A stretch of DNA of 60,665 nucleotides from a virus (IMGVR_UViG_3300042923_000927:1-60665); one strand, 5' to 3'. Numbered from the stretch's first letter, positions 28,364 through 28,482 are shown. Numbers and translations: made by a program. The notes: a model not told the origin generated them from the sequence alone.

Positions 28364-28393
28364 GAATATTCATGGAAGTTTCGGGTAATAATG
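28364..28393 (+). promoter_or_regulatory. SigF-like (forespore) promoter, antisense to the operon
   Basis: GAATA-N15-GGTAATAATG versus the B. subtilis SigF consensus GYATA-N15-GGnnAnAHTR. Confidence 0.6.
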
Positions 28394-28413
28394 ATGTCGA
28401 TGGAGGTGATAAA

Positions 28414-28482
28414 ATGATGTTCATTATCGGGCTGATAATCGGTGGAGTTATGGCTTATGCGACCAGCAAGGTTGTTGGTTAG
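28414..28482 (+). CDS. 22-aa hydrophobic micropeptide MMFIIGLIIGGVMAYATSKVVG
   Basis: Near-perfect GGAGGTGAT RBS; sits in the gap between two minus-strand genes. Confidence 0.65.
   Translation: MMFIIGLIIGGVMAYATSKVVG

Follow-up and report, generated by a model that had tools for sequence, protein, structure and literature searches.

Genes of the prophage SPbeta take part in the sporulation cascade of its host, with sspC being under the control of SigG in the forespore and sprB under that of SigE and SigK in the mother cell (PMC8270828, as excerpted). The genomes of lytic phages, in turn, can be trapped in forespores as "virospores," for which a role of Par-like phage genes has been suggested (PMC12991052, as excerpted). 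In the portions of the re-annotation of phage SPP1 that are drawn on here (PMC6316719), only heavy-strand open reading frames (ORFs) above 45 codons were considered, and the segment between genes 31 and 31.1 is listed as one of five unexplained intergenic segments. The same portions describe gp31.1, gp31.2 and gp32 (VirB4/TrwB/FtsK-like by HHpred) as a possible translocon, the role of which is given as unknown, and report that 31.2 and 32 are dispensable. Here we consider a related locus in the viral sequence IMGVR_UViG_3300042923_000927:1-60665, which we refer to as the window and which is a complete phage record of 60,665 bp with direct terminal repeats. In it, a micro-gene for a 22-amino-acid (aa) membrane peptide lies behind a SigF-type promoter on the plus strand, opposite a phage operon of ParM/ParR, VirB2, M23 and VirB4-like genes. 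That this micro-gene is transcribed in the forespore is the reading that we favor, with a probability of about 0.6, from the evidence of the sequence.

An initial annotation of the window had proposed promoter boxes, a ribosome-binding site and a 22-aa ORF in the gap between a "ParR-like" and a "pilin-like" gene, and all of these elements were found exactly where it had placed them, on the plus strand. The -35-like element GAATA (28364..28368) has one mismatch to the published GYATA and is separated from the -10-like element GGTAATAATG (28384..28393) by a spacer of 15 nt, which is within the 14-15 nt of the SigF type. The -10-like element agrees, as had been claimed, with GGnnAnAHTR at every specified position, and it fits GGNAANAMTR fully as well; it has the GG and a terminal G, as in spoIIR. 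The predicted transcription start (28399..28400, +) was placed by its offset from an A that is conserved in relatives 6 nt past the -10. The Shine-Dalgarno (SD) sequence GGAGGTGAT (28402..28410, +) is a 9-nt match to the Bacillus anti-SD complement, and its GGAGG ends 7 nt before the ATG at 28414. The micro-gene (28414..28482, +, stop included) begins with ATGATG, ends with TAG at 28480-28482 and would encode the glycine-zipper-like membrane peptide MMFIIGLIIGGVMAYATSKVVG, which matches the profile of the family described below. It is convergent with a gene for a gp31-like ribbon-helix-helix (RHH) protein, the stop codons sharing 3 nt, and divergent from a gp31.1-like gene. The promoter is directed towards the gp31-like gene and borders, on the other strand, on the ribosome-binding site of the gp31.1-like gene. 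A longer in-frame ORF of 36 aa starts at an ATG at 28372, between the -35 and the -10, and would therefore be absent from the predicted transcript. A complex prediction for the gp31.1-like protein of 112 aa (alignment A3) with this 36-aa ORF returned no answer (score 0.00), which is evidence neither way on binding. The sequence GGAGGTGA, taken for the strong SD, occurs seven times in the window, against 1.84 expected.

Relatives were gathered by way of the operon's proteins. A megablast of positions 27000-30000 against phages and plasmids gave no match, scans of IMG/VR with one protein at a time (the 852-aa ATPase, the actin-like partition protein (ALP) and the M23 protein) found nothing, and a single-protein scan of GTDB gave one weak match (L001) that was not used. 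By tblastn, the 852-aa protein matched 104 phage records, named for Bacillus (91), Geobacillus (five), Lysinibacillus (two), "Deep-sea" (two) and Alicyclobacillus, Brevibacillus, Microcystis and Terrisporobacter (one each). An alignment of six VirB4-like proteins (A1) fetched 77 loci from IMG/VR and 35 from named genomes (Paenibacillus, Cohnella, Neobacillus, Bacillus, Brevibacillus, Anaerobacillus, Desulfotomaculum, a Clostridium metagenome-assembled genome and others), and the nearest VirB4-like relatives of the window, at 43-48% identity, lie in genomes of Paenibacillus, Cohnella, Neobacillus and Desulfotomaculum. The named hosts of the relatives are endospore formers, and genes for small acid-soluble spore proteins (SASPs) and for SpoIIR were present in all five of the carrier genomes tested. 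In a class-wide genome search, 27 of 401 genomes, a set without taxon labels, matched at E <= 1e-10. Loci of the B. cereus group share at most 32% of their 31-mers, and four plasmid records match.

The micro-ORF recurs at the same place across these loci. Among the first five annotated loci (MMB025, 0105phi7-2, GBK2, SPP1 and D6E), four have a hydrophobic opposite-strand ORF of 17-25 aa with an SD at the corresponding position, and the fifth has a similar ORF with a weaker SD. Over 117 loci, 101 of 215 opposite-strand hydrophobic ORFs of 14-35 aa with an SD fell into four of 46 bins of 250 nt, at 250-1,250 nt before the start of the VirB4-like gene, a count that is inflated by some 14 B. cereus-group loci with an extra 24-aa opposite-strand ORF (MISEP...) inside the gp31.1-like gene. 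These extra ORFs are probably spurious; their SD match is 4-5 nt long and lies 2 nt from the start codon. Of the loci with a gp31.1-like gene, 89 extend for 1,300 nt or more upstream of it; among these, the micro-ORF was adjacent in 80 and further off in five, one locus was cut by a contig end, and three (L048, L052 and L057) had no micro-gene. Phages 049ML001 and Ray17 carry the opposite-strand unit as in SPP1. As a separate observation, 16 opposite-strand hydrophobic ORFs with an SD share one bin at +250..+500 nt into the VirB4-like gene (loci L008-L119), a cluster that may reflect a clade-specific effect or the estimate of the gene start. In phage YungSlug (L158) the scan gave no opposite-strand ORF, and before the gp31.1-like gene the sense strand (441-536, +) has an annotated 31-aa "membrane protein."

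Three further lines of evidence argue that the ORF is coding. First, a hidden Markov model (HMM) of the peptide, seeded with five peptides and iterated over ORFs that were unfiltered for SD or hydrophobicity, recovered 54 of 20,031 small ORFs, both strands counted, at E<1e-3, and all 54 were on the opposite strand and syntenic. An HMM built from the peptides of 39 relatives, with the window excluded, ranked 28414-28482 (+) first of the 2,034 small ORFs of the window (E 1.8e-4, against 0.37 for the next, unrelated ORF). Second, the consensus MxFxIGxxVGxxIGxxVNxxxG, with one invariant glycine (G10) and one near-invariant glycine (G14, at least 90%), is kept across clades whose DNA no longer aligns, and a strong SD and the ATG are retained across relatives. 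Third, synonymous and nonsynonymous codon differences in the B. cereus group number 459 and 257 in the predicted frame versus 92 and 601 or 40 and 624 in the shifted frames, with a bias in the same direction in three further sets. A search of Pfam and NCBIfam with 48 of the 50 peptides of alignment A2 returned no real family, the weak matches being to glycine-zipper, YtxH and DUF883_C entries (best E 0.0074). Of 78 distinct micro-genes, 52 have a terminator-like hairpin in the 150 nt that follow, in many cases directly at the stop codon, and the distance from the end of the -10 to the start codon is mostly 22-35 nt in relatives and 20 nt in the window. No opposite-strand coding sequence is annotated at this spot in any of eight phage records. 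As judged by these comparisons, the opposite-strand micro-ORF is a real, conserved and unannotated coding gene at the gp31-gp31.1 gap in most relatives, including SPP1, and its predicted product is a single-helix membrane peptide of about 20 aa of the glycine-zipper type. The view that it is an overlooked gene is thus borne out by the profile, the synteny and the codon bias.

The second part of the argument concerns the promoter. According to Wang et al. 2006, as cited in the part of bioRxiv 10.1101/2023.12.01.569620 used here, SigF promoters have the consensus GYATA / GGnnAnAHTR, and that part also lists GAATA as the -35 of the known SigF promoters of yuiC, yabT, yjbA and ypfB. A second rendering gives GTATA / GGNAANAMTR for SigF and GNATA / CAWAMTA for SigG (PMC3416734, Table 4). 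We picked micro-genes by the peptide profile alone, which gave 46 distinct upstream sequences, and compared these with 5,000 random 75-nt windows from the same loci. The SigF consensus was matched with at most one mismatch in 23 of the 46 and with at most two in 43 (null 0.5% and 4.6%); the corresponding figures for SigG were 18 and 43 (null 0.8% and 9.4%). At up to two mismatches, the consensus for SigA was matched by none, that for SigE by none and that for SigK by 12. In distinct relatives with at most one mismatch, for which the candidate at each locus was picked partly because a promoter was present, the spacer was 15 nt in 31, 14 nt in 13 and 16 nt in one.

Letter frequencies were taken from 44 relatives with a 15-nt spacer, in rows that had been pre-filtered to at most two mismatches, with one candidate per locus chosen partly by the presence of a promoter, so that only unforced positions count as independent. 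In the -35 they were G.98, T/A.66/.27, A.86, T.98 and A.84, and in the -10 they were G.95, G.70, two positions without preference, A 1.0, T.82, A.91, C/A.59/.36, T 1.0 and A.93. The spacer is variable between the two conserved boxes, the T of the -10 at.82 is unforced, and the A that lies 6 nt past the -10, at.91, is probably the start site. The family consensus GTATA-N15-GGnCATACTA includes the SigG -10 CAWAMTA. In the nearest relatives (L014, L059 and L089) the -10 at the same place is GGTAATAATA. For the SigG-type arrangement (CAWAMTA, 17-18 nt from GNATA), the window has AATAATG, with two mismatches.

In the 2.1-kb upstream zone (226,570 bp), a promoter-first scan gave 79 matches on the opposite strand and 11 on the sense strand, compared with 53-54 per strand elsewhere (904,310 bp), and 6-mers found de novo to be enriched upstream include GGACAT, CATACT and ATACTA. 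The hosts' own promoters are alike: in three of five carrier genomes spoIIR is preceded by GTATA-N15-GGAGATACTG or GTTTA-N14-GGACATACTG, and ahead of most host SASP genes stands G[CTA]ATA-N17/18-CATACTA, in which the GG is missing. In C. difficile, SigF promoters are told by a G upstream of the -10 and SigG promoters by an A downstream of it (PMC3789822, as excerpted); the phage family mostly carries both marks. From its sequence, then, the upstream element is a conserved promoter of the forespore (SigF/SigG) type. The initial annotation had called the promoter SigF-like and had named the conservation of peptide and promoter in homologous loci as a test set beforehand; the former assignment stands, given the counts and the likeness to the spoIIR promoters of carriers, and both peptide and promoter proved to be conserved.

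Two other sites in the window resemble forespore promoters. At 58890-59023 (-), GTATA-N15-GACCATAATA, which also reads as GNATA-N18-CATAATA with a full SigG-type -10, is followed by the SD AAGGAG and a 27-aa hydrophobic ORF, MTIFTMIAITLIMMSAITIAVILTKKK, that is co-oriented with its neighbors. At 57711-57739 (+), GAATA-N14-GGTAATAATA lies on the opposite strand inside a 260-aa minus-strand gene (57388-58170); its -10 is nearly identical to that of the micro-gene, and no clear SD or ORF comes after it. Spo0A boxes (TGTCGAA) are not enriched in the window, with 14 versus 9.1 +/- 3.4 expected.

Several observations weigh against forespore transcription of the micro-gene, or against the window copy as an example of it. 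The exact pattern of the two blocks occurs once in the window against 0.14 expected and at least once in 14 of 100 shuffles, and because of this near-chance expectation the motif of the window is not significant by itself. The window copy is a divergent member of the family: its -35 is GAATA and not GYATA, the leader predicted before its SD is just 2-3 nt, and a search of the 150 nt after it gave no terminator-like hairpin. Its peptide has G10, but it has alanine at position 14, where 90% of the family have glycine (the small-xxx-small pattern is kept), and it lacks the common asparagine. In L048, L052 (PBC1 / Carmen17-type) and L057 the gp31.1-like gene follows directly on the gp31-like gene, and hence the module can do without the micro-gene. 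The sigma dependence of the promoter is predicted by consensus matching. Transcription of SPP1 during vegetative infection was reported from the heavy strand only, in the sections of PMC6316719 used here. A run search with the SPP1 locus (L047:2600-4600) gave one recorded RNA run with a share of 0.08 and two guessed RNA runs with small shares; the RNA-type contigs on L047 (about 3104-3329 and 3803-3984) lie outside the micro-gene (3556-3609) and are without strand information, and they bear neither way.

The alternative that survives best, which we regard as unlikely but worth keeping in view, accepts the micro-gene as real and takes its promoter not to be forespore-specific. The gene would then be read by SigB, by SigA with a phage factor or by an unknown phage factor, as an early or stress membrane protein of the translocon module. 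SigB-type promoters are related to those of the SigF type, and 10 of the 46 upstream sequences fit the SigB consensus at up to two mismatches (null 2.5%), a further point against our reading; for SigH the number was zero. The forespore specificity of the promoter is predicted from its sequence. On the other hand, SigF and SigB were compared with an equal number of specified positions, and SigF accounts for 43 of the sequences versus those 10. The zero count for SigA tells against a SigA promoter, and the third letter of the -35, A in.86 of rows, is as in GTATA and unlike GTTTAA. Host spoIIR promoters are of the same kind, and a search of the window for a Sigma70 region-2 (Sigma70_r2) gene found none. 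In favor of a phage factor, the late promoters of SPP1 are described as atypical and in need of an unidentified one (PMC6316719, same sections).

Less probable still is a unit like a type I toxin, in which a membrane-damaging peptide would be held in check by pairing of its mRNA with the convergent operon mRNA and would serve in maintenance of a plasmid-prophage or in abortive killing. The peptide is short, hydrophobic and convergently encoded with a 3' overlap to a neighboring gene, and in the window the ALP/RHH partition pair adjoins it. No curated toxin family was matched, however, the hits in Pfam and NCBIfam being the weak glycine-zipper ones (PADLOC and Rfam were outside the scan), and the gap showed no separate gene for an antisense RNA. 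Nor does the leader offer room for the SD-sequestering structure that is typical of type I toxins. The micro-gene is retained in strictly lytic SPP1-type phages without partition genes, and the conserved promoter is of the sporulation type and not of the SigA type.

We consider it improbable, and distinctly more so than a toxin, that the RNA is itself the product, with a convergent antisense transcript cutting or blocking the operon mRNA and the open frame being incidental. The promoter does face the operon, the RNA would pair with the 3' end of gp31 and the intercistronic region, and many copies have a hairpin soon after the ORF; against this, the synonymous bias is confined to the predicted frame, the SD and ATG are kept strong, and the motif with its invariant glycine outlasts the alignability of the DNA. 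An accidental ORF next to an accidental motif between two genes, for which one could cite the expectation of 0.14 two-block motifs per genome in the window taken by itself, is contradicted by the clustering, the peptide HMM, the promoter counts, the codon bias, the linkage to gp31.1 and the window-excluded profile, and we give it next to no credence.

The long genes around the micro-gene are all on the minus strand, in the transcription order ALP gene, RHH gene, a 132-nt gap, the gene for the protein with two transmembrane segments, the M23 gene and the gene for the 852-aa ATPase. The ALP gene (28693..29514) encodes a ParM-like protein (ALP_N 6.1e-15; phrog_691 "partition protein" 8.3e-37). 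The 80-aa RHH gene (28479..28721, start at 28721 inferred; phrog_4223) has a product with 33% identity to SPP1 gp31 over 51 aa (E 1e-5). Directly upstream of the ALP gene is a parC-like set of five GGGTTWAA-type iterons (29530..29606) with a spacing of 11-12, and once 22, nt. The locus thus has the actin-like ATPase, the small RHH-like adaptor, for which DNA binding is putative, and the upstream iterons by which a ParMRC-type partition system is recognized. The gp31.1-like membrane protein of 112 aa with two transmembrane segments (28008..28346, start at 28346 inferred from the ribosome-binding site; phrog_5422) is 48% identical to SPP1 gp31.1 over 56 aa (E 3e-17). Given the homology of the two flanking genes to 31 and 31.1, the gap in the window corresponds to the 31-31.1 gap of SPP1.

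For the TrbC/VirB2 family (PF04956), the 112-aa protein of the window scores 12.9 bits, below the gathering cut-off of 27.9; among gp31.1-like proteins 34 of 39 match TrbC/VirB2 at E <= 1 (best 3.9e-7), and a gp31.1-like profile matches VirB2 of the PDB at E 0.037. These matches show a weak likeness of the protein to TrbC/VirB2 pilins and not membership of the family. The labels "ParR-like" and "pilin-like" were therefore reasonable, as the RHH gene follows the ALP gene with its five iterons and most gp31.1-like proteins have the weak TrbC/VirB2 match. Downstream are the M23 metallopeptidase (27309..27998; PF01551 2.3e-23) and the SPP1 gp32-like ATPase (24811..27369; phrog_5156 4.7e-164), whose VirB4/TrwB likeness is taken from portions of PMC6316719 and of an annotation note for 0105phi7-2. 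We note that in the segment 24811-28346 (-) the genes for a VirB2-like protein, a wall peptidase of the M23 family and a VirB4-like ATPase follow one another, a minimal set of the type IV secretion system (T4SS) kind in a phage; Bacillus phage YungSlug has this trio as well, under the names membrane protein, peptidoglycan metallopeptidase and ATPase. The phage also seems to be rich in small membrane proteins, as judged by several further hydrophobic ORFs of 31-51 aa preceded by an SD, at 37-132, 281-415 and 418-531 (-) and at 5077-5232 (+).

The 132-nt gap yielded no SigA-like promoter that could serve the operon genes downstream; these genes probably need read-through transcription, which would meet the promoter of the micro-gene head-on. 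One part of the initial annotation found no support, namely mother-cell expression of the main operon; a promoter of the mother-cell type was neither sought nor seen, and the homologous genes of SPP1 form an early SigA unit, according to the sections of PMC6316719 used here. The roles that the initial annotation suggested for the unit, as an exclusion signal, a channel partner or antisense interference, are conjectural.

If the micro-gene is indeed a forespore gene, host RNA polymerase containing SigF, and probably also SigG, would transcribe it, and the peptide would then be made only when the phage genome sits in a developing spore. Its promoter abuts the gp31.1-like ribosome-binding site and opposes the operon, and its activity might interrupt expression of the downstream VirB2-like and VirB4-like genes in the forespore, through transcription that runs against that of the operon or through base pairing of its RNA with the operon mRNA. 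The same activity might deliver the peptide to the forespore membrane, where it could act on the membrane or on the VirB2-like and VirB4-like proteins. The trapping of phage genomes in spores as virospores would be the likely setting. A more ambitious version, which we think doubtful, is a forespore-only switch with a sense of compartment: after arrival of a phage genome in the forespore, SigF would fire against the operon, and the peptide would shut or gate, from that side, a T4SS-like translocon of DNA or protein, built of VirB2-like and VirB4/FtsK-like proteins and accompanied in the window by ParM/ParR and a wall hydrolase. The module would then be the means by which lytic phages such as SPP1 are trapped in spores and persist as virospores.

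In open-access papers and preprints we came across no account of a conserved opposite-strand micro-gene of the forespore type in phages, whether lytic or temperate. Phage genes under sporulation sigma factors are already known from SPbeta; what appears to be new is a widespread, unannotated family of micro-genes. In SPP1, a model phage for 50 years that is said to be transcribed from one strand, the micro-gene would be the only light-strand gene, and it would account for the 31-31.1 gap that the re-annotation left open. If the gp31.1/gp32 "translocon" is tied to sporulation, the behavior of phages in developing spores becomes testable by the standard genetics of B. subtilis, and L048, L052 and L057, as natural variants without the micro-gene, are possible comparison phages.

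How, then, does the locus compare with known systems? The iterons upstream of the ALP gene are arranged as in ParMRC loci. With SPP1 the window shares homologues of gp31, gp31.1 and gp32 in its RHH protein, its membrane protein with two transmembrane segments and its 852-aa ATPase, and the micro-gene fills the 31-31.1 gap; beyond SPP1, it has the ALP gene, the iterons and the M23 peptidase, and a micro-gene that the consulted sections of PMC6316719 do not describe. The predicted promoter shares with the SigF/SigG promoters of B. subtilis (spoIIR, csfB and the internal promoter of rho) the boxes GTATA/GAATA and GGnnAnAHTR and a spacer of 14-15 nt; it differs in being phage-borne and in lying inside an operon and facing against it, with GAATA as the -35 in the window. 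Bacillus prophages carry type I toxin-antitoxin loci such as bsrG/SR4 and txpA/ratA. These, like the micro-gene, have a small hydrophobic peptide gene with a 3' overlap to a convergent transcript, whereas the micro-gene lacks both a separate gene for an antisense RNA and a long structured leader, matches no family and has a conserved promoter of the sporulation type. Finally, the micro-gene resembles sspC and sprB of SPbeta in being, by its sequence, a phage-borne gene under host sporulation sigma factors. SPbeta, however, is a temperate prophage and the products of these genes are known (a SASP and a recombination directionality factor), whereas the micro-gene would encode a membrane peptide of about 20 aa without a known family, on the opposite strand in a VirB2/VirB4-like module, and is found in strictly lytic phages as well.

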